Source: Bacteroidota bacterium (GTDB lineage: Bacteria; Bacteroidota; Bacteroidia; Bacteroidales; VadinHA17). From it: DNA of 64,000 bases. How positions within the stretch are numbered: the stretch's first letter is position 1; every line of letters starts with the position of its first letter. Positions 1 through 38,622 of this stretch are shown piece after piece. Both the position numbers and the translations under genes were made by a program. The stretch is from the NCBI GenBank assembly GCA_029547705.1, contig JAKPOU010000028.1, forward strand, positions 55,982 through 119,981, given 5' to 3'. The notes under the pieces were generated by a model. It searched no databases and was not told where the DNA came from. It saw only the letters and a list, made by a program, of their open reading frames with translations.

Positions 1-242
1 CAATCTACTTTTGGGAATAATTTATAAACATTCCGATACAATCCCTGATTTATTTTTTAATCGGCCGTCATTTTATTAATAGATATTGTATGTTCTTCGT
101 AATTTTATATTTTCATTTACTTTTACTTCATTATTATATGATACTCCAGTTAATGAGCCTGTTAATACTGGTTATTTTGCGGTAAGTCTCTCACTAAAGA
201 ACGGAATTGTTTGAATTATTGGACTAAGTTTTAGTATTTAAT

Positions 243-1511
243 CTAATATTGAACTTCCCATTCGAATTTAGCGAGTACCGGCATATGATTTATTCTTTCA
301 CGCCGGTCAAAGGAACCTGTAATAATAGAGAATCTTGCAGCAGATATAATCCAATCCTGAGGTATATCATTAATATATATTGCTACATTAACTATATAAT
401 CACCCACATTTAATGGTGGTTTAATTAATCTGCAAACAAATGAAAAATCCTCAACTGGTGGAATATCATATAATGTACCTATTAAATTTGAGTCACATGA
501 GATAAGGTTAAATAAATTGATACTGTTAATTGAAATTGAAAATCGAGCCCTTTTAAATTCTTTAAAATAATTTTTAGCAAATACTCTGATAAAAATATCA
601 TCCCCAATGGCATAAGATCTGGAATTTATTCCGTTCTCAAATATTATTTTTTGAAATTTAATATTTCCTACTCCTTTTCTGTCTTTCCTATCCAATAACA
701 ATATTTCCTTTTCAGATATTAATGAATTTAAATAATGGGTTACAACTTCCTGAGTTTTGCCAATGATTTCAACTACACCTTGTTTTAAAATAATTGATTT
801 TGTACATAATGATTCAATAGATCCCATATTATGACTCACAAATAGTACTGTTCTACCCTGTCTTTCAGAAATATCCTGCATTTTTCCAATTGCTTTTTTT
901 TGGAATTCTGCATCTCCTACAGCCAGAACCTCATCTACAATTAGTATTTCAGGCTCAAGGTGTGCTGCCACAGCAAATCCGAGTCTTACAAGCATTCCGC
1001 TGCTGTAGCGTTTGACAGGTGTGTCTATGTAACGTTCCACACCTGCAAAATCTATTATTTCATCCAGTTTTTTGTTTATTTCAACTTTCGTCATACCAAG
1101 GATAGCTCCATTCAAATAAATATTCTCACGGCCGGTCATTTCAGAATGAAATCCTGTTCCTATCTCAAGTAAAGATGCGATCCGCCCCCTGGCTTTTATT
1201 GAACCTGTTGTTGGCGAGGTGACTTTGGACAATATCTTTAACAAGGTGCTTTTGCCTGCTCCATTCTTACCGATAATTCCCAGTACTTCACCTTCTTCAA
1301 TTTCCAGATTTATATCTTTCAGCGCCCAGACATATTCGCTTTCTCCTTTTACTTCTCGGATATTTGTTTCACCTATTTTCAGATAAGGATCCTCGCGGCC
1401 GAGAATGGATGTCTGCCACCATCGGTTTAAATCATGTGACAGCGTACGGGTACTGACCAATCCGAGACGATATTGTTTGGAGAGGTTTTCTATCTTAATT
1501 ACTATACTCAT
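243..1511 (-). CDS. ABC transporter ATP-binding protein, polysaccharide/O-antigen exporter type (Wzt/TagH-like) with C-terminal extension
   Basis: 422-aa ORF. Walker A GKNGAGKST, signature-like YSSGM, Walker B ILIVDE. About 170 aa extend beyond the NBD, as in Wzt/TagH glycan exporters. Lies 8 nt downstream of the ABC-2 permease gene. Confidence 0.85.
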   Translation of the reverse strand: MSIVIKIENLSKQYRLGLVSTRTLSHDLNRWWQTSILGREDPYLKIGETNIREVKGESEYVWALKDINLEIEEGEVLGIIGKNGAGKSTLLKILSKVTSPTTGSIKARGRIASLLEIGTGFHSEMTGRENIYLNGAILGMTKVEINKKLDEIIDFAGVERYIDTPVKRYSSGMLVRLGFAVAAHLEPEILIVDEVLAVGDAEFQKKAIGKMQDISERQGRTVLFVSHNMGSIESLCTKSIILKQGVVEIIGKTQEVVTHYLNSLISEKEILLLDRKDRKGVGNIKFQKIIFENGINSRSYAIGDDIFIRVFAKNYFKEFKRARFSISINSINLFNLISCDSNLIGTLYDIPPVEDFSFVCRLIKPPLNVGDYIVNVAIYINDIPQDWIISAARFSIITGSFDRRERINHMPVLAKFEWEVQY

Positions 1512-1519
1512 TGTATGAA

Positions 1520-2368
1520 TTATACCGTGTCCATAAAGGACCGTTGTACTTTATTAAACACAACTATCCCAATAGCAAGCAAAATCAACATAAATCCGAA
1601 GGAATAGGCAAGACTGGTCCAGTTGAACGTTCCGACTCCCATGGTACCGTATTTGAATGTTTCAATGATCGATGTAACCGGATTAAGCGACATAATCTTC
1701 TGCATTTTTGGCGACATTGTACTCAACGGATAAATTACCGGAGTTGCATACATCCATAACTGAACAAAAAAAGTAAACAATATAGTAAGGTCGCGGTATT
1801 TGGTTGTCAGTGAAGAAATAAGGATACCAAAGCCTAGTGCCAGGCCTGCTAGCATCAGGATCAGGACAGGTATAAGCAGGACATATATGTTTGGCGCCAC
1901 ATCCACCTTTAACAGCAGGAAATAAATGTATACTGTGATAAACAACAAAAACTGGATACCCATACGTACAAGATTGGAAGAAACGGTTGAAAGTGGTATT
2001 ATCAGTCTTGGAAAGTATACTTTTCCAAAGATACTCTGATTAACAATAAATGTTGTTGAAGTCTTTGTCAGGCAATCAGCAAAATAATGCCAGCATACGA
2101 TCCCTGCAAGATAGAACATCGGCTGAGGCAATCCGTCTGTGGAAATCTTCGCTATACCCCCAAAAACCACCATATACATTATCGTGGTTAGTGCAGGCTG
2201 GACAAAAAACCAGACTGGTCCGAGTATCGTCTGTTTGTATTGGGTAACAATATCCCGCTTTACAAAAAGTGTGTACAAATCACGGTACTGCCAGATCTCT
2301 TTCAGATCGATCAGCAAGAGTTTGGTCTTTGGTTTAATAATGGTGGTCCAGGATTCGTCAGATGACAT
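1520..2368 (-). CDS. ABC-2 type polysaccharide exporter permease (Wzm/TagG-like)
   Basis: 282-aa ORF with about 6 hydrophobic helices. The N-terminal motif (WQYRDLYTLFVKRDIVTQYKQTILGPVW) is typical of ABC-2 permeases. Paired with the ATPase gene. Confidence 0.85.
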   Translation of the reverse strand: MSSDESWTTIIKPKTKLLLIDLKEIWQYRDLYTLFVKRDIVTQYKQTILGPVWFFVQPALTTIMYMVVFGGIAKISTDGLPQPMFYLAGIVCWHYFADCLTKTSTTFIVNQSIFGKVYFPRLIIPLSTVSSNLVRMGIQFLLFITVYIYFLLLKVDVAPNIYVLLIPVLILMLAGLALGFGILISSLTTKYRDLTILFTFFVQLWMYATPVIYPLSTMSPKMQKIMSLNPVTSIIETFKYGTMGVGTFNWTSLAYSFGFMLILLAIGIVVFNKVQRSFMDTV

Positions 2369-2451
2369 TCGTATGTTTGTTTTAAATTCTGGATTGTGAG
2401 TTTAGGTGTTCAGGAAGTAACTGTTTTATTAAGTCAGTATTCCGATATATT

Positions 2452-4899
2452 TTAAACATCTTCTTTATAATACCCTTTTACTGAGTCCGAATAACCATAT
2501 TTTCCATACTGGTTATAGTAACTGTAGCCATAGTCATAACCATAGCCCATGGCATAGCCGTAACGGAGGCCATAGCCATAGTAACCAGCAAGTTTGATAT
2601 CGTTTATAACAATTCCGAGATTCTTTATACTTTCATTTTTATGCAGATCATCAATCAGTTCCACAGTATTTTTCGTAGTATATCTCTGACGGACAACAAA
2701 CAAGAATAAATCTGAGAATGGTGAAACAAGTAAAGCATCCGTAACAATTGCAACCGGAGGAGTATCAATTATTATGTAATCAAATCTCTTTTTAGATTTT
2801 TCAATAAAATTCCTCATCTCATCAAGTTCAATCTGTTCTGCAGGATTCGGAGGGATAGGCCCAGATGGTGCAAACCACAGATTTTCTATTTCCGCTTTCT
2901 GAATGATTTCTTCAAATTTATTTTCACCTATAAGATAGGTACTGATACCCATCTCGTTATCAGTATCAAATATTTTGTGCAAACGAGGCTTTCGAAGATC
3001 CAAACCTATGAGGAGAACTTTCTTCCCTGACATTGCAATAATAGACGCCAGGTTTACTGAAACAAAAGTCTTGCCTTCCGCACTTATTGTTGATGTGATG
3101 GAAATCACCGGACATTCTGTTTCCTTAAAAAAGTATTTTAGGTTTGTACGAAGGGAACGAAATGATTCTGACAGGATTGATCCCGGATTTTCAGCCACCG
3201 GCAATTCAGTTTTATTGCCATTATGACTAATATATCCTATAACCGGGACTGCAGTTCTTTTTTCAATATCCCCTTTGTCAATGATTTTGTTATTAAAGAA
3301 ATCCAGTATCAGTATTCCTCCCAGCGGAATCAACAATCCAAACAGCAATGCCATTCTGTAATTCTTTTTTGATTTTGGCTTTATCATAATTGTACTGAAA
3401 GGTCCTGCGTAATCAATAATCCTGTTATTGGACACATTGGCAGCCTTTGCAATACCGGCTTCAGCTTTCTTCTCAAGCAGGAATGTATATACTGTATTAT
3501 TTATTTCAAATTTTCTCTGTATTTTAATTAGTTTTCTCTCAGTAGAAGGAAGTTTGTTAAGAGCGATTTCAACTTTTTTAAGACGCTCTTCCGCATCGGC
3601 AAGAATCCCGTCGATATTTTGCAATTCACTTTTAATATTTTCATTTATAGCATCCTTGACCGCAATTATAGATGAATCAAGAAATTTAACAGGTTCAAGG
3701 GATTCATCAAGGTTCATAGAAAGGATACTTTTCTGTTTCTGCAGCTGGGAAAGCTCATTTACAAGATTGGTTATAAGCTGATCGGAAACTCCCATCACTG
3801 AAGGCGCGACAATATCCCCGCTCTCATTCCTGGTTTCAATATAGTTCCTGAGATATAAATAATACCTTTTTTGTAAAGAAAGAGAGGTTTTCTCATTTTC
3901 AATTATTTCAAGCTTATTCTGAATAACAGTTCCCTCCTGGCTTATATCTATCAGTTTGTTTCCCAATCTGAAGCTTTCCATGTCCCCTTCTGCAAGGGCC
4001 AGAGAATCAGAAATGATTCCCAACTGGTCATCTATAAATGCAATAGTCCTGTCAGCCGTCTGGTTTTTAAGCTCCAGCCCTGATTGGATATAAACATCCA
4101 TTAACTTATTCAGATAATCAGCTTCCCGTTCTGCTACAGCACCAGTGGAGGAAAGAGTTACAAGAGATGCTCCTTCTGCGATCGGAATGACTGATAATGA
4201 TGATCTGTATCTGTTTGCCAGTGAAGAAGGACTGACAAAATAAAAATAATACCTGTTTGAACTTACTGTACTGAATATTTTTTCCCTCGGATTTTTTCGT
4301 TCAATTTTAAAATCGAATCCCATTTCCTTAAACTGATCTCCAAAATTCAATTCCCGTTCAAAATTAGAATCACCATTAATTTTAAGAAGAAATTTCTCCT
4401 CCGACAAAATTCTTATATTGACCGGCTTATTTAAAACCTGGTCAGAAAGCATTTTGTAGACTACAATAAAAGGATTATTTTTATACTGCTGAGTTTCAGC
4501 AACCCCCCTCTTGCCAACTTTCATGTAAACCACATGAAAATCCGGGAGCTGGTTCATGACTTCTAAATTAAGGTTGAATGATTTCAGTATCCCGATTTCA
4601 TTGTTCAGGTTTTGCTGTAAATTATAAGAGCCGGACCCCGGAAAAATATTTGCCAGTTCAGCAGTTGATCCAGAAAGTCTGTCGTCTTTGATCAGCATTG
4701 TTGAGGAAACAGTAAACATTTTCTCTCCCCACCGGTTTGTTCCATAAGCCAGGCTTAAAGTCAGGAAGAGTGCTATGGCAAACCAGTACCAGTTGCTTAT
4801 GAATAATGATACGTAACGCTTAAAGTCTATACCATCATCTTCAAATGAACTGAGATATGCCTTCCCGGATTGCGTTTTAGGAGATTGTTGCATATTCAT
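2452..4899 (-). CDS. polysaccharide co-polymerase / tyrosine autokinase (Wzc/GumC-like, PCP-2a)
   Basis: 815-aa ORF. N-terminal TM helix, long coiled-coil periplasmic region and a second TM. C-terminal P-loop kinase domain (SAEGKTF, IIIDTPP). Terminal tyrosine cluster with 16 Y in the last 47 aa. Confidence 0.85.
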   Translation of the reverse strand: MNMQQSPKTQSGKAYLSSFEDDGIDFKRYVSLFISNWYWFAIALFLTLSLAYGTNRWGEKMFTVSSTMLIKDDRLSGSTAELANIFPGSGSYNLQQNLNNEIGILKSFNLNLEVMNQLPDFHVVYMKVGKRGVAETQQYKNNPFIVVYKMLSDQVLNKPVNIRILSEEKFLLKINGDSNFERELNFGDQFKEMGFDFKIERKNPREKIFSTVSSNRYYFYFVSPSSLANRYRSSLSVIPIAEGASLVTLSSTGAVAEREADYLNKLMDVYIQSGLELKNQTADRTIAFIDDQLGIISDSLALAEGDMESFRLGNKLIDISQEGTVIQNKLEIIENEKTSLSLQKRYYLYLRNYIETRNESGDIVAPSVMGVSDQLITNLVNELSQLQKQKSILSMNLDESLEPVKFLDSSIIAVKDAINENIKSELQNIDGILADAEERLKKVEIALNKLPSTERKLIKIQRKFEINNTVYTFLLEKKAEAGIAKAANVSNNRIIDYAGPFSTIMIKPKSKKNYRMALLFGLLIPLGGILILDFFNNKIIDKGDIEKRTAVPVIGYISHNGNKTELPVAENPGSILSESFRSLRTNLKYFFKETECPVISITSTISAEGKTFVSVNLASIIAMSGKKVLLIGLDLRKPRLHKIFDTDNEMGISTYLIGENKFEEIIQKAEIENLWFAPSGPIPPNPAEQIELDEMRNFIEKSKKRFDYIIIDTPPVAIVTDALLVSPFSDLFLFVVRQRYTTKNTVELIDDLHKNESIKNLGIVINDIKLAGYYGYGLRYGYAMGYGYDYGYSYYNQYGKYGYSDSVKGYYKEDV

Positions 4900-6315: not shown

Positions 6316-6548
6316 GGTGTTAAAGTCAAATATGTAATAACTTCAAATAAGAAACAAAAGGTGAAATAATAAAGTCTAGTGGAAAAAGTAAAATAAGTTG
6401 GATAAGTGTAACATCTTTTTTCCTGTTTAACTCTAACACTTACTCACGCTTCCGCTCCGTCAGTCCCAAGATTTAAATGTCCTGACCAACGTTTACTTTG
6501 CTGTATTTCACTGTCTTAAATAAGGCAGCAAGGTAACAGTAACCTTAC

Positions 6549-7103
6549 TTAATAAGCAGAATCGCTACCTCCGGAATTCCAAAGCGGGAGCAGGTCTGCC
6601 GATTTATATTTTGACAGGTATGATTCTGCTTCTGAGGGATCAAGAACTATGTAACTCACTTTTCTTTCTACTATCTTCTCAGCCTGCATAACTTTTCTTG
6701 CAAGATATTCACGATCAATACTTTTCCCAACAAAAATAAGATCTATGACCGGGCTGTCCACGCCTCTTGCGAGATCACCTGTCAGATACACACTACTTAA
6801 ATTGCCCAGGCGATGAATTACTTTTTCTATCACCCGGTCAATGCCTGTCTCTTTTAAAATAATGTTATGGATATCTTTAAAGAGAGGATGCCTGTCATTT
6901 GCCTGAAATAATTTCTTGTTACCTTCCCATATTGAATTTAAAAGTCCAGCCTCCTCGAAGCGGTTTAGTTCAATTCTAATTGCATTCGATGATTCCCCCA
7001 ATTCATTTTCTAAGCCTCTCAAATGAGCCCGTGTACTACTGTTAAGAAAAAACTTCTTCAACAGTTTTATCCTGGTTTCAGAGGTAATAAGACTTTTTAA
7101 CAT
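6549..7103 (-). CDS. winged-helix (ArsR-like) transcriptional regulator with nucleotidyltransferase-like C-terminal half
   Basis: 184-aa ORF. The N-terminus TRIKLLKKFFLN...HLRGLENELGESSNAIRIELNRFEEAGLL is wHTH-like. Sits upstream of the export operon on the same strand. Confidence 0.6.
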   Translation of the reverse strand: MLKSLITSETRIKLLKKFFLNSSTRAHLRGLENELGESSNAIRIELNRFEEAGLLNSIWEGNKKLFQANDRHPLFKDIHNIILKETGIDRVIEKVIHRLGNLSSVYLTGDLARGVDSPVIDLIFVGKSIDREYLARKVMQAEKIVERKVSYIVLDPSEAESYLSKYKSADLLPLWNSGGSDSAY

Positions 7104-32269: not shown

Positions 32270-32486
32270 CGGGTTTCTGTTTATTCTGACTTCCTGAACG
32301 GTTAACGGGGTCGTTCACCTTCAGGGATTCTGCCTGTTTACCGTCCCTGTCCAAATTGTTTTAATGTCGGGCCGGGGTTCCACTGATTCACCTTACTTCT
32401 CAAAATAAATGCATCGTTCCGTGAGTACAAAATAATAAACGATGAAGAATGACTTATTATTTGGTATTTTTACAACAATACAAATT

Positions 32487-33188
32487 ATGATGAAAAAACT
32501 GGTAATACTCACTGGTGCCGGAATGTCGGCGGAAAGCGGTATACGGACCTTCAGGGAGACGGGCGGACTATGGGAGGAATATGATGTGAATGAAGTCGCT
32601 TCACCCATGGGATGGGCAAAAAACAGGGATCTGGTACTGAGGTTCTATAATGAAAGAAGGACACAGCTTGCGGTATGTGAACCAAATGACGGACACAAGG
32701 GCCTTGCCGCACTTGAAAAGTATTTCGACGTTCACGTCATCACCCAGAATGTCGACGATCTTCATGAGAGGGCGGGAAGCACGAAGATCCTCCATCTGCA
32801 CGGGGAACTGACGAAAGTGAGGAGTACCAAAGATCCTTCACTGGTTTACGACATAGGATACAAGGAAGTCAATCCAGGGGATCTCTGCGAGAAGGGAAGT
32901 CAGCTCCGGCCGCATATTGTCTGGTTTGGCGAGGCAGTCCCGCTGATGGATGAAGCAGTGGAAATAACTTCCACGGCAGATATTTTTGCGGTGATCGGTT
33001 CCTCACTCAATGTTTATCCTGCTGCGGGACTTGTCGGCTTTGCTCCGCGGAACGCCTCCCTCTGGCTCATTGATCCGCATGATGTATATGTTCCTTCAGT
33101 TAAGAATATCAACGTGATAAAGGAAAAAGCATCGGACGGGGTAAGGATACTGACCCGGAATCTTCTCGAACAGTACGGAATTATCTGA
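32487..33188 (+). CDS. Sir2-family NAD-dependent protein deacylase (CobB-like)
   Basis: LTGAGMSAESGIRTFR, ITQNVDDLHERAG, HLHGEL. The start is taken at MMKKLVIL (ORF track 32442). Confidence 0.85.
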   Translation: MMKKLVILTGAGMSAESGIRTFRETGGLWEEYDVNEVASPMGWAKNRDLVLRFYNERRTQLAVCEPNDGHKGLAALEKYFDVHVITQNVDDLHERAGSTKILHLHGELTKVRSTKDPSLVYDIGYKEVNPGDLCEKGSQLRPHIVWFGEAVPLMDEAVEITSTADIFAVIGSSLNVYPAAGLVGFAPRNASLWLIDPHDVYVPSVKNINVIKEKASDGVRILTRNLLEQYGII

Positions 33189-33200
33189 TATCTTTGGAGG

Positions 33201-35147
33201 ATGATTGACCGCTCCACCATAGAACGCATACTCAATGCCGCCCAGATAGTTGAGGTGGTACAGGAATTTGTCCCCCTCAAAAGACGGGGTGCAAATTATC
33301 TCGGCCTCTGCCCCTTTCATAATGAAAAAACACCCTCTTTCACCGTGTCGCCTTCCAGGGAGATATTCAAATGCTTCGGATGCGGCAAGGTGGGAAACGT
33401 GGTCAATTTCATAATGGAACACGAACACCTCTCCTATCCGGAGGCCCTGAAATTCCTGGCAAGGAAATATCATATCGAAGTAGTTGAAAGAGAGCTTTCT
33501 CAGGAGGAAATTGAAAAGCAGAACGAAAGGGAAAGCCTTCTTGTCGTTACTGCATACGCATCCCGGCAGTTCTCGGAAAACCTCTTCAACAGCGACGAGG
33601 GCCGGTCGGTGGGACTTTCATATTTCAGGGAAAGAGGATTCAGGCATAACACCCTCAAGAAATTTGAAACGGGATACAGCCTGGAGAAACGCGATGCCTT
33701 TTCGCAGAAAGCTCTGGATGACGGTCACAGAAAGGATTTCCTTGTAAAAACAGGCCTGTCAATTGAACACGAAGACCGTATCTTCGACAGATTCAGCGGA
33801 AGAATAATATTTCCCATCCATTCCCTTTCCGGTCAGGTGCTTGGTTTCGGGGGAAGAATCCTGAAGACGGATGCAAAGGCAGCAAAATATCTCAACTCCC
33901 CGGAGTCGGAGATATATCACAAAAGCCGTATCCTTTACGGTATCTATCAGGCACGAAGGGCAATAACAAAAGAAGACAAGTGCTTCCTGGTGGAAGGATA
34001 CACCGATGTGATGTCACTGCATGAGGCAAACGTGGAGAATGTTGTCGCTTCTTCGGGCACTTCACTCACCCGCGAACAGGTCAGGCTCATAAAACGCTTT
34101 ACGTCAAACATAACAATGCTGTATGACGGCGATCCCGCAGGTATAAAAGCCTCATTGCGGGGAACCGACCTGGTGCTCGAGGAAGGAATGAATGTAAGGA
34201 TTGTCCTTCTTCCGGAAAATGAAGACCCTGATTCCTGGTCAAGGAAAGTAAGCAACGAAGAATTCCGGAATTATCTCAATGAAAATGAGACAGATTTCAT
34301 ACGTTTCAAAATAAACCTCCTTATTGAAGATGCTGCGGGTGACCCCGTAAAAAAGGCTAATCTGATCCGCGATATAGTCAGGTCAATAGCCGTTATTCCC
34401 GAATCCATAACCAGGACAATATACATCAAGGAATGCAGCGTCGTGATGGAAGTACCCGAAGAGGTGCTTTACCATGAGGTGAACAAGATGCGTCAGCAGA
34501 GATCATTTCAGGACAGGAACAAATATCCCGGACCAGAGGATCTGCCCGTTCCGCCGCCGGTCATTCCCAAAAAGGCAAAACAGGAAGTAACAACCTACGT
34601 ATCCGAAAAGGAAATAATCAGGATTCTCCTCAAATTCGGAAGCAATGAGTTTGACAGGGTGATCCGTAAGGAAGACGGACGGGAGGAAGTTACAACCGTG
34701 GCCGATTATATAGTAAGGGAAATTGTTTCGGATGAACTGACCTTTGATGACATGATCCTCGGAAACATATTTGAAGAATTCAGGTTTGCAAGCGAACAGG
34801 GAGTATTTCTTGAAGACAAGGTCTTTATCAAAAATGAAGACCCTGCCATTTCAATGCTGTCCGCGGATATTCTTGCCGAATCACATCAGCTGAGCAGGAT
34901 ATGGGTAAACAAGCATACCTATGTCGAGACCGAGGACATGAAGCTGAGGGAAATTGTTCCGGATGCTGTCCTGAAATTCAAGGGCGACAAGATAAAGCTC
35001 AGACTGCAGGAGTTAATGGAAGAGCTCCGGGAGGCAGTCAGCTCAGGCGATATGGAAAGGATTCCGGAACTCCAGAAAAGAGACCAGGCACTCAAGGCCG
35101 CACTTGGAATAATATCCCGGCAACTCGGAAACAGGATACTGCTGTAA
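33201..35147 (+). CDS. dnaG: DNA primase
   Basis: 648 aa. Zinc-finger CPFHNEKTPSFTVSPSREIFKCFGCG and TOPRIM block LVEGYTDVMSLH...LYDGDPAG. Confidence 0.95.
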   Translation: MIDRSTIERILNAAQIVEVVQEFVPLKRRGANYLGLCPFHNEKTPSFTVSPSREIFKCFGCGKVGNVVNFIMEHEHLSYPEALKFLARKYHIEVVERELSQEEIEKQNERESLLVVTAYASRQFSENLFNSDEGRSVGLSYFRERGFRHNTLKKFETGYSLEKRDAFSQKALDDGHRKDFLVKTGLSIEHEDRIFDRFSGRIIFPIHSLSGQVLGFGGRILKTDAKAAKYLNSPESEIYHKSRILYGIYQARRAITKEDKCFLVEGYTDVMSLHEANVENVVASSGTSLTREQVRLIKRFTSNITMLYDGDPAGIKASLRGTDLVLEEGMNVRIVLLPENEDPDSWSRKVSNEEFRNYLNENETDFIRFKINLLIEDAAGDPVKKANLIRDIVRSIAVIPESITRTIYIKECSVVMEVPEEVLYHEVNKMRQQRSFQDRNKYPGPEDLPVPPPVIPKKAKQEVTTYVSEKEIIRILLKFGSNEFDRVIRKEDGREEVTTVADYIVREIVSDELTFDDMILGNIFEEFRFASEQGVFLEDKVFIKNEDPAISMLSADILAESHQLSRIWVNKHTYVETEDMKLREIVPDAVLKFKGDKIKLRLQELMEELREAVSSGDMERIPELQKRDQALKAALGIISRQLGNRILL

Positions 35148-35160
35148 ATACAAACATTTT

Positions 35161-35679
35161 TTATCTTTTCCTTTCCATTTTTAATCCTCTTTCTTGCAAA
35201 AACTCATATATATCTATACATTTTACTCCATTCTTATGTGCTACTGCCGGAATTCGATTCGGCTTTAATTTATTTTCGTCTGTTATTAAAACATAGTTGT
35301 GTACTTTACAATAACCAATCAAATATGGGTCTGCCTCCTCTTTGCCTTCAGCTTGTTTATTTGGTGTAAGAAACCCCGTATTGTATTCTTCATTGATAAT
35401 AGGTTTTGCTGCATTGAAACTTGCAACATCTGTATCAACTACTAATAGTTTTCTCCATTTCTTAATCCAGTCTTTTAGAAATACTTCCTTCCCCCTATAC
35501 TCATTAATTTCCTGTTCGACAAAGTCAATGGTTTTGAAGCAGCCCTGCCGTATTAAATCTTCAATTTCCTCCCAAATTGCAGTAAATACAGGATTTCCCC
35601 TTTTAAAATTAAAGTCCAATCGCATCAGGGCACTTGTGTCAATTACATAAACCTTATTTCCTTCACTGAATAAGTCCAT
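35161..35679 (-). CDS. DUF4411-family PIN-like nuclease-domain protein (candidate toxin/effector)
   Basis: 172 aa. YVIDTSALMRL, ADPYLIGYCKVHNYVLITDE, RIPAVAHKNGVKCIDIYEFL. Starts 2 nt after the stop of the upstream XRE/ImmA gene. Confidence 0.8.
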   Translation of the reverse strand: MDLFSEGNKVYVIDTSALMRLDFNFKRGNPVFTAIWEEIEDLIRQGCFKTIDFVEQEINEYRGKEVFLKDWIKKWRKLLVVDTDVASFNAAKPIINEEYNTGFLTPNKQAEGKEEADPYLIGYCKVHNYVLITDENKLKPNRIPAVAHKNGVKCIDIYEFLQERGLKMERKR

Positions 35680-35681
35680 TG

Positions 35682-36824
35682 TTAAGCGTTCAGAAATTGA
35701 CGGGCCTTGGGAATATAGGACAACTTAACTCCCAGAAAATCAGACAAATCTTTAATATTAATGCGATTTTGGTCAAATGCCATGAACGCCAGGCTAATAT
35801 AGGTTTTGCCTTTTTCCTGGACCGCCTCTTTGGCTAAATCTCTCCCTTCAGAATTTTTCGCCCTTGCGAAGGGCGGCTTGTTCCATTGTTTGTGTTTTTC
35901 TTTATAAAAAGCTGCTGTGGTAAGCTTCTGTTCAAATAAGCTTCTCAGTATTGCCAGAGGGCCAACATGAAAATGCCTGCCAAGCTCAGTCAGGTCCTTT
36001 AATAACCATTCTTCCTGACCTTGCTCCTGATATGAGCGAACAATATCCATACGCAATAATTCTTCTGAAGGCACTAATACTTCGGCAGCAAAAGCGTTAC
36101 ACCACTTTTCCACTTCCCATTGCGGATTCAGAGATAAATCACTTATCGCATTCTCATTTAATAAAATGTGTCCCAGTTCATGAAATAGGGTAAATGTTTT
36201 TGAGTGATCCTGTTCGCCTCCTCTTTTTATGCCGATAATCGGAATAAGATCATCTACAATGGCAAAACCCCGTACATTGTCTTGTGTTAAGCTTAGTTGA
36301 AATACAGCAATACCCAGGTTCTCAATGCGTTCTATGTAAACTTCCAATGCTATTCTAACATGTTCAATTTCCCTTATTTCGTCCAAGTGAAGCAGTTGAC
36401 GAATTTTTTCTGCAACTTCCCGCGGATTATTCTTTAATGATTCAGATAAATTGAATTTGGGAAATGGCATTCCCATTTCTTCGCGCAACTCAACAAACGA
36501 TTGAGCCAAAGCTCTTGCCTTACGGACTGCCATAATGGTTTTTTCATGAAAATACCCAAGTTCCTTTGAATCAATGCTACGTCTATCTGCAGGAAACGGT
36601 TTTTCCTTTGGTGGATTATTAAGTAAAAGTGTAGCAATAGTTCGTTTGTATGTTTTTGAAAATGCCTTAAGCTCTGCCAGGGTGGGCTGTTTCCCACCTG
36701 ATTCTAATTGAACCAACCGCTTAGGCGAAATACCAGTACTTTCAGAAGCCTGTGCCTGGTTCAGTGCAAGCGATTCCCTCGCCCATACAAGGACTTCATG
36801 ATTGATGTGAATACTTTCCTTCAT
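35682..36824 (-). CDS. fused XRE-family HTH / ImmA-IrrE (COG2856, M78) zinc metallopeptidase
   Basis: N-terminal HTH (LNQAQASESTGISPKRLVQLESGGKQPTLAELKAFSKTY). HEXXH FHELGHIL at 36168-36182. The start is probably the ATG at 36824 (ORF track TTG 36851). Confidence 0.85.
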   Translation of the reverse strand: MKESIHINHEVLVWARESLALNQAQASESTGISPKRLVQLESGGKQPTLAELKAFSKTYKRTIATLLLNNPPKEKPFPADRRSIDSKELGYFHEKTIMAVRKARALAQSFVELREEMGMPFPKFNLSESLKNNPREVAEKIRQLLHLDEIREIEHVRIALEVYIERIENLGIAVFQLSLTQDNVRGFAIVDDLIPIIGIKRGGEQDHSKTFTLFHELGHILLNENAISDLSLNPQWEVEKWCNAFAAEVLVPSEELLRMDIVRSYQEQGQEEWLLKDLTELGRHFHVGPLAILRSLFEQKLTTAAFYKEKHKQWNKPPFARAKNSEGRDLAKEAVQEKGKTYISLAFMAFDQNRINIKDLSDFLGVKLSYIPKARQFLNA

Positions 36825-36906
36825 GTAAACTTTGATTAAATATTGTAACAAATTAAGAAGGCAATTCTCAAATATTTGGTTGTGCTTTTAAAACAGATAA
36901 TCTTCC

Positions 36907-37054
36907 TTTACGGATCAAATTTAATACCTTTTCCACGTTCTGATTGCCGGTTTTGAACGTACTCATTTACCAGGTTGTAGTTCTTACCGGGTTTGTCAGC
37001 CAGCAAAGTCTGTTTTATTCCTTTATCTTCCAGTACTACTTTTATTCTGTTCAT
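36907..37054 (-). pseudogene. truncated or degenerate XRE-family HTH gene remnant
   Basis: The minus-strand ATG at 37054 reads MNRIKVVLEDKGIKQTLLADKPGKNYNLVNE(YVQNRQ..), which is HTH_XRE-like. The expected C-terminal helices are missing. The exact frame near 36958 is uncertain by 1 nt in my reading. Confidence 0.3.
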
Positions 37055-37305
37055 GCGGACAATGATTCAAACTGCTAAAATAGTTCTTAATTATTGACTT
37101 ATCTCATATTTCAATATAAGAAGTGTTTGAATTATTGTTTCACTATCCTTCACGCTGTTGATAAAAATGCTCTTTGGGTTTTACGAAGGCCCGTGGTAGC
37201 CAGTACCCTTTATTAAGGCCTGTGTATAAGATTTATCTCTGATAGTTCCTGTCCGATTTGATGAATTCCAAGCAGAATTTTTTCTGTTTGTTGTTTTCAT
37301 CTCCA

Positions 37306-37508
37306 TCACTTTTTATTCTCCAACTTCTGACCAGCATCCTCGAGTATCTTTTCCTCAAGTCCTTTTTCTGCTTCCTGACTGCCATGATTTGGGAAGATGA
37401 TCATACATGGTTTCTTGTCATGTTTAAGTTTTACATGTGAACCTTATTGTGAAAAAGGAGAGACCAGCCATCTTTTGTCAGAATCTTATAAAGTTCAGAA
37501 CAGCCCAT
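37306..37508 (-). pseudogene. hicA: HicA-like toxin gene with a single-nucleotide frameshift
   Basis: Frame a reads MGCSELYKILTKDGWSLLFHNKVHM-stop. Frame b continues HVKLKHDKKPCMIIFPNHGSQEAEKGLEEKILEDAGQ... Together these match the HicA pattern (SE..L...GW...H.KL.H......P.H.....G....IL...G). The span is 203 nt, one nt short of an intact frame. Confidence 0.5.
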
Positions 37509-37692
37509 TGCCTGCTGAGAGGATACTACAGCACAAAGGTAAATAATAATTTGCCTGGATATCAATATTCTTTCATTTTTGTGCTGACATTGGCTATAAT
37601 TTATATCAGGTGCAGCTTTTAATCCTGAAACCCGGCCGGAAAAACGCATCAATGAATCTGCCCCGGTTGCGCATTATTTCGGAATTTTATTA

Positions 37693-37700: not shown

Positions 37701-37719
37701 GTCTGTGAATTCTCTGTCC

Positions 37720-38622
37720 ATGAAAGTCAATATATATCTCCTACTGACATTTGTCTTTCTCATTACCTTTTCCTGCAGAAAAAAGGCTCCGGAAAAAATC
37801 AGCTTCACTCCTGTTTTTTCAACCCTTTCTGAAAATTCCTCCGCAGATACCGGCCCGGAAACAAAATATGAAACCTATTACGGACTGCTTACTCCGGTTG
37901 AGATCTGCTCCATCTTCAACAGGCTCGGGGTGCCTTATAATAATGCAGCCCTGAATCCGGTATCAAACAGCGACTTATACATGAGCATGGCGAAAGCTGC
38001 CGTGAATACCGGAATTTACGGGGTGGATTTCGGTTACCTGAAAATGTTCGGACTGGGACAGGAAGTGATCAACTACATGGTTACCATACGCAGGATTAGC
38101 GGGAAGCTCGGAATTCCGGACTACCTGATGCTCAATCCTCTCAAACAGATTGAAAGCGATATTGCAGATCCCGACACCGTTACTGCCCTCATGGAAAAAG
38201 CCTTTTCTGACCTGGAGAACCACCTGATGAGAAACGAAAGGGAAAGTATTGCAGGCCTGATGCTCATGGGCGGATGGGTGGAAGCAATGTTCATTGCAAC
38301 CCAGCTGGCTTATGATCACGAAAATCCCGATCCGGTGGTAATACAGAAAATCGCCGAACAGAAATACACCCTGAAATCACTGCTGAGTTTCATGAAAAAC
38401 TATTATGACGACCCGGTGGTGGTTTATTACACGAAAAAACTGAAATTTCTCAATAATTACTTCGACAGCTTCGACATCTTTTTCAAACCCGGTGACCTTG
38501 AAATAGATACCCTTAAAAAGGTATTGCGTTCCTCGGGTGCTGACATGACAATCACCCTTCCAACCCTTGACATAATAAAGGATTATGTCGCAAAGCTGAG
38601 AACCGAGATGGTAAGCCCCTGA
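37720..38622 (+). CDS. lipoprotein of unknown function upstream of the alpha-2-macroglobulin gene
   Basis: MKVNIYLLLTFVFLITFSC lipobox. About 300 aa, apparently helical, with no recognised motif. Confidence 0.7.
   Translation: MKVNIYLLLTFVFLITFSCRKKAPEKISFTPVFSTLSENSSADTGPETKYETYYGLLTPVEICSIFNRLGVPYNNAALNPVSNSDLYMSMAKAAVNTGIYGVDFGYLKMFGLGQEVINYMVTIRRISGKLGIPDYLMLNPLKQIESDIADPDTVTALMEKAFSDLENHLMRNERESIAGLMLMGGWVEAMFIATQLAYDHENPDPVVIQKIAEQKYTLKSLLSFMKNYYDDPVVVYYTKKLKFLNNYFDSFDIFFKPGDLEIDTLKKVLRSSGADMTITLPTLDIIKDYVAKLRTEMVSP

Follow-up and report, generated by a model that had tools for sequence, protein, structure and literature searches.

Two adjoining minus-strand genes between dnaG and an alpha-2-macroglobulin (A2M) operon, in a stretch of 64,000 nucleotides of a Bacteroidota contig (the whole of which is called the window here), raise the question of whether they form a toxin–antitoxin (TA) system in which the antitoxin is itself a protease, and of how the toxin would then be set free. 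In our opinion, the pair is likely to be a type II TA system of two genes, horizontally acquired and lodged in the chromosome. It would be of the VapBC52, or 'HTH-ImmA(M78) + DUF4411-PIN', kind, which belongs to the wider Rosmer-like group of systems with peptidase antitoxins.

The gene pair and the islet around it

The features of the locus are given below, with the basis of each assignment in brackets.

33201-35147, plus strand: dnaG (Pfam)
35148..37660, no strand: AT-rich islet of ~2.5 kb, the TA cassette and its decayed neighbours (empty-site comparison, composition)
35161..35679, minus strand: toxin gene, 172-aa DUF4411 PIN-like nuclease of VapC52 type (Pfam PF14367)
35680..35681, minus strand: 2-nt spacer from the antitoxin stop TAA to the toxin ATG (sequence)
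35682..36824, minus strand: antitoxin gene, XRE HTH and M78 peptidase, 380 aa from ATG (Pfam HTH_3 and Peptidase_M78)
36842..36871, minus strand: promoter-like site, TTGAGA, 18 nt, TG-extended TACAAT (consensus match only, 10/12)
36908..37054, minus strand: 48-aa ORF resembling the N-terminal half of a Cro/C1 HTH (HTH_26, E 0.058, weak)
37213..37309, minus strand: hicB remnant, ~311 bp shorter than in L001 through an internal deletion (alignment with L001)
37306..37508, minus strand: hicA pseudogene with one frameshift, an islet neighbour outside the TA system (PF07927)

A preliminary description of the locus had placed two minus-strand genes 2 nt apart, directly downstream of dnaG, in an AT-rich insert next to an A2M operon, and all of this was borne out. 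The junction of the genes reads TAA-CA-ATG, and their 2-nt spacing points to a bicistronic operon. The toxin gene is convergent with dnaG, its stop codon lying 13 nt past the dnaG stop. The neighbouring 1887-aa alpha-2-macroglobulin protein contains the domains bMG3, A2M_BRD, bMG6, MG2 and bMG10, and a gene for a 305-aa lipoprotein sits between the islet and the A2M gene. The GC content is 0.375 in the islet (35148-37660), 0.47 in dnaG, 0.45 in the lipoprotein gene and 0.50 in the A2M gene.

The islet occupies the dnaG–lipoprotein intergenic spacer. In about 60 related metagenome contigs the same gap is an empty site of 8–553 nt (997 nt in one contig) with no TA genes, and in comparison with these contigs the insert of 2.5–2.9 kb is limited to the window's own lineage. 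The right edge of the islet was placed by alignment to the empty sites. No terminal direct or inverted repeats flank it, and no tRNA, Rfam match, integrase, excisionase or phage gene was found within its 2.5 kb. Its hicA gene carries a 2-bp indel, is intact (61 aa) in the relative L001 and, when the frameshift is repaired, matches PF07927 (HicA_toxin) at E 8.3e-15; hicB, now a remnant, encodes 135 aa in L001. The 48-aa HTH ORF is equally short in L001 and probably represents a truncated gene.

The length of 172 aa given earlier for the toxin stands, whereas that of 389 aa for the antitoxin is obtained only by counting the ORF (35682-36851, minus strand) from the first TTG at 36851. The start is most likely the ATG at 36824 (MKESIHIN..., 380 aa), because the homologs have 382–383 aa and the promoter-like site (36871-36842) and the TTG overlap. 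This site lies just upstream of the ATG and contains TAATTTG, which comes close to the Bacteroidota -7 element but is 1 base off the TAnnTTTG consensus. Of 72 homologous cassettes, 37 have the consensus itself at most 50 nt from the ATG; a control window had it in 6 of 72. No conserved palindromic operator is evident upstream of the antitoxin genes across the homologous loci, because their upstream regions are unrelated, the Bacteroidota -7 promoter element excepted.

The two proteins and the systems they resemble

The toxin matches Pfam DUF4411 (PF14367) at E 6e-21 with the whole model covered. Over its full length it also matches the 'DUF4411 family protein' of 9vzy_D/9vzz_A, with E-values of 7e-7 (pairwise) and 1.8e-40 (family profile). 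In a fold search its AF2 model (pLDDT 80.8) matched VapC PIN toxins at a probability of 1.00, the best structural matches being VapC2, VapC21, VapC11 and Shigella VapC. All of the putative catalytic residues D14, E57, D117 and E135 are present; among 79 diverse DUF4411 family members D14 is invariant, and the other three are at least 90% conserved. These comparisons show the 172-aa protein to be, by its sequence, a PIN-fold nuclease with its four putative acidic catalytic residues intact.

The antitoxin gives Pfam matches to HTH_3 (E 8.5e-9) and Peptidase_M78 (E 3.7e-14). The HMM search upheld the XRE HTH, M78 and DUF4411 domain calls of the preliminary description, and its motifs FHELGH, YVIDTS, ADPYLIGY and ITDE were all found in the sequence. 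The protein consists of an N-terminal XRE HTH, a flexible linker, a zinc peptidase of the M78/IrrE type and a conserved helical C-terminal domain. The alignment with VapB52 (9vzy_A) runs end to end, at E 2.8e-27 pairwise (residues 18-384 against 4-384) and at E 8e-38 by profile (residues 9-376 of 382 profile positions aligned); it shows that the C-terminal domain and the predicted HEXXH + Glu zinc site (H215-E216-x-x-H219 and E239 in the 380-aa numbering) are kept. The HEXXH motif and the third ligand Glu are invariant in 72/72 antitoxin homologs, a pattern that speaks for a peptidase both catalytically active and under selection.

Two differences from VapB52, both modest, concern the regulation of this peptidase. 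The zinc-capping Cys229 of VapB52, its 'cysteine switch', is replaced in the window antitoxin by Ser228 (380-aa numbering); Cys occupies this position in 61 of 72 relatives, and Ser, Thr or Ala in the window's subclade (11/72). Since not every CapP has the switch and IrrE lacks it, the latter being in this respect like the window antitoxin and unlike CapP, Ser228 concerns regulation and not membership in the fold. In the linker, the window motif D80-R81-R82 is aligned to D-F-R of VapB52. The D and the second R are found in all 72 homologs; at the F position 67 have R and 2 have F or Y. The site of self-cleavage may therefore be other than in VapB52, where the 'FR' site is itself only 'probable' (PMC13273310). 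The linker carrying this motif is probably flexible or disordered: in the AF2 model (pLDDT 67.8) residues 73-90 and the loop 226-230 have pLDDT < 50. A fold search of this mediocre model against a PDB copy to April 2026, probably without 9VZY, gave XRE-HTH matches only (DdrO, CapH N-domain, P22 c2), all at E > 0.001.

The preliminary description held that the pairing lacked experimental characterization. This proved wrong, and published work on VapBC52 (Rv2514c/Rv2515c of Mycobacterium tuberculosis) covers nearly all the experiments proposed there. In TASmania (Akarsu et al. 2019), Rv2514c was toxic in M. smegmatis and was rescued by Rv2515c (PMC6504116). Singh et al. (NAR 2026) solved the structures of VapC52 and VapBC52 (PDB 9VZY/9VZZ), found an antitoxin to toxin ratio of 1:2, and reported tRNA cleavage, phage resistance and a self-cleavage by VapB52 that ssDNA triggers and that was abolished in the HEXXH double mutant H216A/H220A (PMC13273310). 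Like the window, VapBC52 has the antitoxin-first order and a DUF4411 PIN toxin with the same four acidic residues, and VapB52 resembles the window antitoxin over its full length, with an XRE HTH, a linker, a HEXXH + Glu peptidase, a helical middle and a C-terminal domain. However, the homology is distant, between an actinobacterial pathogen and a Bacteroidota host (Rikenellaceae-like) from activated sludge.

Computational surveys had predicted the same arrangement. Makarova et al. (2009) proposed that COG2856-Xre fusions, Rv2515c being named, share operons with toxins of the PIN family (PMC2701414). In the survey of Matelska et al. (2017), DUF4411.1 follows immediately downstream of genes in which DUF955 and HTH are fused (PMC5499597). 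This 'three-component' TA class, the equivalent of the COG2856-Xre + PIN class, was described outside Actinobacteria and is identical in architecture to the window, which is one more instance of a class predicted computationally.

RosmerTA (RmrT/RmrA; Millman et al. 2022, Ernits et al. 2023) likewise has an antitoxin composed of an HTH and an ImmA-type zinc peptidase, and the window antitoxin matches 13 PADLOC RmrA models (best E 5e-19, residues 16-330). PIN-like partners of the RmrA-type antitoxin hub are reported in NetFlax. Unlike the window, RosmerTA has a variable gene order and validated toxins of unrelated kinds, e.g. membrane-depolarising proteins. The window toxin belongs to no recognised RmrT family, as neither it nor its Bradyrhizobium homolog matched a PADLOC model.

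The peptidase is also homologous to those of CapP/CapH (regulators of CBASS) and IrrE/DdrO (Deinococcus), with a PADLOC capP match at E 1.6e-9, and the N-terminal HTH resembles those of DdrO and CapH by fold matches. In these systems ssDNA is the known activator and the cut is made before Arg (F82-R83 in CapH), but peptidase and HTH repressor are separate proteins, whereas in the window both are fused in one polypeptide. Their peptidase carries a C-terminal GAF domain, and none was found by Pfam in the window antitoxin. Their output is de-repression of an operon; that of the window would be release of a toxin, the sole downstream gene being that of the PIN protein. The canonical VapBC toxin has the PIN fold of the window toxin; however, the fourth acidic residue of the latter is Glu, unlike canonical VapBC, and the canonical antitoxin is a small protein (RHH/AbrB/Phd) that wraps the PIN active site, in contrast to a 380-aa HTH-peptidase.

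Distribution of the cassette and selection upon it

The cassette is common in environmental Bacteroidota, one scan having found it in 80 species-level genomes. In 80/80 of them the antitoxin gene is directly upstream of the toxin gene on the same strand. The scan took in relatives at 55–97% identity, and this linkage thus holds for that subfamily; in distant members it rests on one plasmid example (Bradyrhizobium, 30% identity), VapBC52 itself and the survey of Matelska et al. Nearly all of 81 cassettes have the two genes spaced by -4 to +3 nt, and 79 of the 80 genomes resemble the window in nothing but these genes. Both proteins are 97% identical to the copies in the relatives L001 and L082, and codon comparison with these put dN/dS at 0.15-0.17 in the toxin and at 0.09-0.11 in the antitoxin. 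Taken as genomic evidence, these data show a pair that is always linked, appears to be translationally coupled, is mobile as a two-gene unit and evolves under purifying selection.

A nonsense-mutated toxin gene beside an intact antitoxin gene was found at 5 loci and the converse at 1 (binomial p ~0.01), as would be expected for a toxic gene. The synonymous divergence of the cassette is three- to seven-fold below that of its flanks. Most genomic neighbours of the homologous cassettes are housekeeping genes, and restriction-modification enzymes make up roughly 12/69 of the upstream neighbours in other genomes. An unannotated gene for a 127-aa protein abuts the antitoxin gene on its upstream side in 7 of the 11 Ser/Thr/Ala loci and in none of the 61 Cys loci, and is missing from the window. 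A MazF/PemK-like identity, prompted by its 'KGDILLP...HPAVVW', found no support in Pfam, PADLOC, NCBIfam or PDB.

Competing explanations and the proposed mechanism

The toxin could instead be a passenger in a repressor/anti-repressor switch of the ImmR/ImmA type carried by a prophage or an integrative conjugative element (ICE). XRE repressors are cleaved by the homologous peptidases ImmA, IrrE and CapP. Many COG2856-Xre operons are located in phages (Makarova et al. 2009, PMC2701414). However, such switches sit beside integration and excision genes, of which the islet has none, and in the window protease and HTH are fused in one chain. A search for the toxin family yielded one weak match among 50,697 phage records, one among 72,556 plasmids and nothing from IMG/VR, and there is no integrase or phage family among the 25 commonest Pfam families on each side of the cassette in ~70 other genomes. 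The constant embedding in prophage lysogeny modules that the preliminary description had considered was therefore not found; this explanation is largely refuted by islet content and surveys, and we have rejected it as having next to no probability. It is very improbable, too, that the pair is a decaying, non-functional remnant of an acquired islet. The dead hicAB of the same islet (frameshift, 311-bp deletion), the apparently truncated HTH ORF and the nonsense toxins of some homologous cassettes elsewhere would fit such decay, but neither ORF is truncated or lacks a catalytic residue, a promoter-like site is in place, and the identity and dN/dS values in comparison with L001 and L082 speak against it. 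An equally small probability is assigned to a regulatory pair, i.e. a transcription factor and a non-toxic RNA-processing PIN enzyme. PIN domains do occur in housekeeping RNases; however, the patchy distribution, varied insertion sites and two-gene mobility, the asymmetric inactivation of the toxin and the demonstrated toxicity of a homolog (PMC6504116) are at variance with this role.

More weight, though still that of an unlikely alternative, may be given to an ordinary type II TA system for addiction or stress, in which the host's Lon or Clp removes the antitoxin and the M78 domain has another substrate or serves as a scaffold or sensor. The authors of NetFlax argue that hub antitoxin domains can be sensors rather than neutralisers (PMC10440598); the gating details of VapB52 are not conserved, the Cys switch being lost and F changed to R at the putative cleavage site; and the neighbouring genes are mostly of housekeeping, not defence, type. 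On the other hand, the zinc site and the D-x-R motif, the latter in a linker predicted to be disordered, are both invariant, and the homolog VapB52 cleaves itself in a HEXXH-dependent manner (PMC13273310).

For a self-cleaving system of the VapBC52 kind, the functional steps are inferred from this distant homolog (toxin pairwise E only 7e-7). One antitoxin would bind a toxin dimer, as in VapBC52, its N-terminal HTH domain holding the complex and its C-terminal helices occluding the nuclease active site. The antitoxin's own peptidase would be activated by a stress signal, by analogy with VapB52, CapP and IrrE the ssDNA that may arise from DNA damage or phage replication. A cut in the HTH-peptidase linker around D80-R81-R82 would then make the complex fall apart, and the freed PIN toxin would cleave tRNAs and thereby stop translation, growth and phage replication. 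The logic proposed in the preliminary description, in which a protease gates the release of a PIN RNase and the pair behaves like a TA or abortive-infection system, agrees in this respect with the homologous system of M. tuberculosis. Because Ser replaces the autoinhibitory Cys, the lock on the window peptidase is probably looser, as in IrrE, and the enzyme signal-stimulated rather than strictly signal-dependent.

A more speculative extension, possible but rather doubtful in our estimate, is that the Ser/Thr/Ala + Arg-Arg subclade (11/72) is gated otherwise than VapBC52 and CapP. Its peptidase may be constitutively 'unlocked', like IrrE, with zinc, access to the substrate or some signal besides ssDNA setting its activity; alternatively, the 127-aa gene product may be a third partner, lost from the window. 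In the case of such different gating, the low synonymous divergence of the cassette would reflect recent replacement or sweeps among related strains.

Summarizing the data on the likely TA system of the VapBC52 kind, it may be suggested that the locus be annotated as a VapBC52-like, or HTH-ImmA + DUF4411, TA system and not as 'uncharacterised'. The natural variants of its family, with Cys changed to Ser, Thr or Ala and F to R, provide material for probing the cysteine switch and the specificity of the cleavage site. The cassette appears to be a mobile unit of two genes, complete in itself, that inserts beside housekeeping or restriction-modification genes, and its presence here would extend the architecture of VapBC52, a toxin held in check by a signal-activated protease antitoxin, from mycobacteria to environmental Bacteroidota.

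Anatomy and identity of the gene pair

The cassette consists of two genes on the minus strand, which are listed here with the putative promoter:

35161-35679 (-), toxin gene, ORF of 172 aa
35682-36851 (-), antitoxin gene, ORF of 389 aa counted from the first TTG
36871-36842 (-), promoter-like site, TTGAGA, 18 nt, TG-extended TACAAT, overlapping the TTG

In agreement with the preliminary description, ORF calls and the junction sequence (TAA-CA-ATG) place the two minus-strand ORFs 2 nt apart, and the Pfam search found the XRE HTH and the M78 peptidase in one protein (HTH_3, residues 23-73, E 8.5e-9; Peptidase_M78, residues 177-302, E 3.7e-14) and DUF4411 in the other (PF14367, E 6e-21, the whole model covered). 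The only anatomical detail to be corrected is the antitoxin length of 389 aa. Translation most likely begins at the ATG at 36824 (380 aa), since the homologs have 382-383 aa and the promoter-like site overlaps the TTG. The Bacteroidota -7 element TAnnTTTG was found 12-25 nt ahead of the antitoxin ATG in 37 of 72 cassettes (upstream 50 nt, loci L004-L078 of our scans) versus 6/72 in a control window, a position that would imply very short leaders. The window version, TAATTTG, is one base short and lies within a sigma-70-like site.

Both proteins were matched over their full length to the Mycobacterium tuberculosis VapC52 and VapBC52 structures (PDB entries 9VZY/9VZZ): the antitoxin to 9vzy_A (E 2.8e-27; 8e-38 with the family profile) and the toxin to 9vzy_D (E 7e-7; 1.8e-40 with a profile from 79 diverse DUF4411 proteins). 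When modelled with AlphaFold (pLDDT 80.8), the toxin matched VapC PIN toxins at probability 1.00. It has all four acidic PIN residues, D14, E57, D117 and E135, whose conservation within the family ranges from at least 90% to complete. All 72 antitoxin homologs keep H215-E216-x-x-H219 and E239, the third zinc ligand, and the C-terminal ~60 residues, whose VapB52 counterpart occludes the toxin active site, are strongly conserved. PADLOC classed the antitoxin as the Rosmer antitoxin RmrA (E 5e-19), with a weaker match to CapP; the toxin is without a PADLOC model.

Such a pairing was predicted by Makarova et al. 2009 for COG2856-Xre fusions, e.g., Rv2515c, with PIN toxins (PMC2701414). DUF4411.1 was placed downstream of fused DUF955-HTH genes by Matelska et al. 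2017 (PMC5499597), and the NetFlax TA network notes PIN-like partners in its ImmA/Rosmer zone (PMC10440598), inside which the window architecture falls. The earlier opinion that the pairing lacks experimental characterisation does not hold, as M. tuberculosis VapBC52 has been characterised (PMC6504116, PMC13273310).

Linkage, mobility and selection

A genome scan with one genome per species gave 80 loci with toxin homologs of 55-97% identity, mostly in Bacteroidota, but also in Ignavibacteria and in a small number of bins with a Proteobacteria label. The co-occurrence of DUF4411 with ImmA/IrrE genes, suggested earlier as a check, was found in all of them: an antitoxin homolog lies directly upstream on the same strand (80/80), with a spacing of -4 to +3 nt in nearly all loci. 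A conjugative plasmid of Bradyrhizobium carries a copy of 30% identity in the same arrangement. At one metagenome locus (L166/L167, 6073-7128, minus strand), a second, convergent HTH + M78 gene of 351 aa directly follows the DUF4411 toxin.

Likeness to the window is limited to the two genes (~35145-36830) in 79/80 loci, and the flanks in other genomes vary greatly, with 79 Pfam families on one side and 94 on the other. Restriction enzymes (Type ISP, Type IIG or ResIII) make up ~12/69 upstream neighbours; integrase and phage genes are absent from the most frequent neighbour families. The toxin family gave one weak match in 50,697 phage records, one match in 72,556 plasmids and none in IMG/VR. 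In a Saprospiraceae MAG (L002), the cassette lies immediately 3' of the complete gene (138-4853) for a Type ISP restriction enzyme of 1571 aa. A short ORF past the cassette (6523-6813) encodes the final ~50 residues of the Type ISP C-terminal domain a second time, as though an insertion had duplicated the 3' end of that gene.

Compared with its copies in two close relatives, L001 and L082, the toxin gene has a dN/dS of 0.15-0.17 and the antitoxin gene one of 0.09-0.11. Five loci (L040, L057, L062, L071, L077) have a single premature stop codon in the toxin gene next to an antitoxin of full length, and one locus has the converse; given the gene lengths, this excess (p about 0.01) is of the kind that would be expected for a toxic gene. 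Decay of other kinds was also seen: the toxin is C-terminally truncated in L026, both genes are decayed in L047, and the antitoxin is fragmented beside an apparently intact toxin in L024, a long-read MAG.

The cassette (35161-36824) has a dS of 0.08-0.13 between the window and L001/L082, three to seven times below that of dnaG (33201-35147; 0.55-0.57) and the lipoprotein gene (37705-38622; 0.40-0.43), and a sliding comparison showed a block of 95-99% identity coinciding with it. This suggests either recent recombinational replacement, homogenisation or a sweep among related strains, or an unusual sequence constraint.

The islet between dnaG and the lipoprotein gene

The cassette lies next to dnaG in an AT-rich insert, together with decayed neighbours:

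33201-35147 (+), dnaG, ending 13 nt ahead of the toxin stop codon
36908-37054 (-), 48-aa ORF, MNRIKVVLEDKGIKQT..., resembling the N-terminal half of a Cro/C1 HTH protein
37213-37508 (-), dead hicAB pair adjoining the cassette (L001 3860-4467)

On the other flank, 850 bp of AT-rich sequence lead to a lipoprotein gene (305 aa), beyond which a bacterial alpha-2-macroglobulin of 1887 aa is encoded. The location directly downstream of dnaG was read correctly in the preliminary description, and so was the AT-rich insert before the A2M genes: GC is 0.375 across 35148-37660 versus 0.45-0.50 in flanking genes, and relatives have empty sites. In a metagenome scan anchored on the lipoprotein gene, ~60 related contigs with both genes had a dnaG-lipoprotein gene gap of 8-553 nt (one of 997) holding no TA genes. 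The cassette-bearing spacer of 2.5-2.9 kb is confined to the window's own lineage, i.e., L001 (a Rikenellaceae MAG), L081 (an activated-sludge contig, 100% identical) and L082. The right edge is at ~37660, where the conserved promoter region of the lipoprotein gene resumes; no flanking repeats, tRNA, integrase or Rfam match were found at the islet.

The hicA pseudogene carries a 2-bp indel (HicA_toxin after frameshift repair, E 8.3e-15), and ~311 bp of hicB are deleted in the window; both genes are intact in L001 and L082. The 48-aa HTH ORF has the same short length in L001 and is probably a truncated gene common to relatives; L044 and L076 also have similar fragments close to their cassettes. 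A Sir2-family gene just upstream of dnaG (32442-33188, plus strand), conserved in L001, has the appearance of a housekeeping gene of the CobB type. At L161 1-890, the distant Bradyrhizobium plasmid pair likewise has a SIR2 family protein as a neighbour, along with an HNH endonuclease. Sir2 genes near both DUF4411 pairs are probably a coincidence.

Regulation in comparison with VapBC52

In M. smegmatis, the toxicity of Rv2514c (VapC52) is relieved by Rv2515c (VapB52) (PMC6504116). One VapB52 is bound per VapC52 dimer (Singh et al., PMC13273310); binding needs its N-terminal domain, and its C-terminal domain occludes the active site. Single-stranded DNA activates the IrrE-type peptidase of VapB52, and the N-terminal domain is cut off, which H216A/H220A abolishes; VapC52 cleaves tRNAs, including those of phage D29, and confers phage resistance (PMC13273310). 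Protease-gated release of a PIN RNase, as proposed earlier, was a good guess that matches this system. Anatomy, linkage and selection of the window pair were observed directly; by homology, it would follow the same cycle, with neutralisation geometry, trigger and RNA targets presumably all as in VapBC52.

Two regulatory positions differ. C229 of VapB52, which caps zinc in the inactive state ("cysteine switch"), aligns with Ser228 of the window; of 72 relatives, 61 have Cys there, and the other residues (Ser, Thr or Ala) are restricted to the 11 members of the subclade to which the window belongs. Some CapP homologs also lack the switch (2026 CapP preprint). Since the switchless IrrE is active without ssDNA and merely stimulated by it (same preprint), the window antitoxin may, by analogy, be less tightly locked. 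The "FR" motif (F75-R76 in VapB52; CapH is cut at F82-R83) corresponds to D80-R81-R82, within a linker predicted to be disordered in the antitoxin model; D and the second R do not vary, but Arg occupies the F position in 67/72.

A conserved 127-aa gene abuts the antitoxin start in 7/11 switch-Cys-less loci versus 0/61 others, counts that come from one clade and are not independent:

L003 4463-4846
L007 4466-4849
L011 4463-4846
L013 866-1249
L024 4465-4854
L027 4465-4857
L044 1921-2304

It is decayed in L021 and missing from the window, and Pfam, PADLOC, NCBIfam and PDB gave no match to it; every one of the 134 clusters in its family is annotated as "hypothetical". In other contexts, it is the leading gene of defence-type modules, namely UDG-like + methyltransferase + GmrSD, Vsr + C-protein + Dcm, and D12 methyltransferase inside an integrative element. 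A different mode of gating in this subclade, which lacks the Cys and carries RR, perhaps involving a third partner, seems to us rather improbable. In our opinion, the changes from Cys to Ser and from FR to RR are differences in regulation and not in kind, and the window pair is a further example of an already predicted and experimentally characterised TA architecture.
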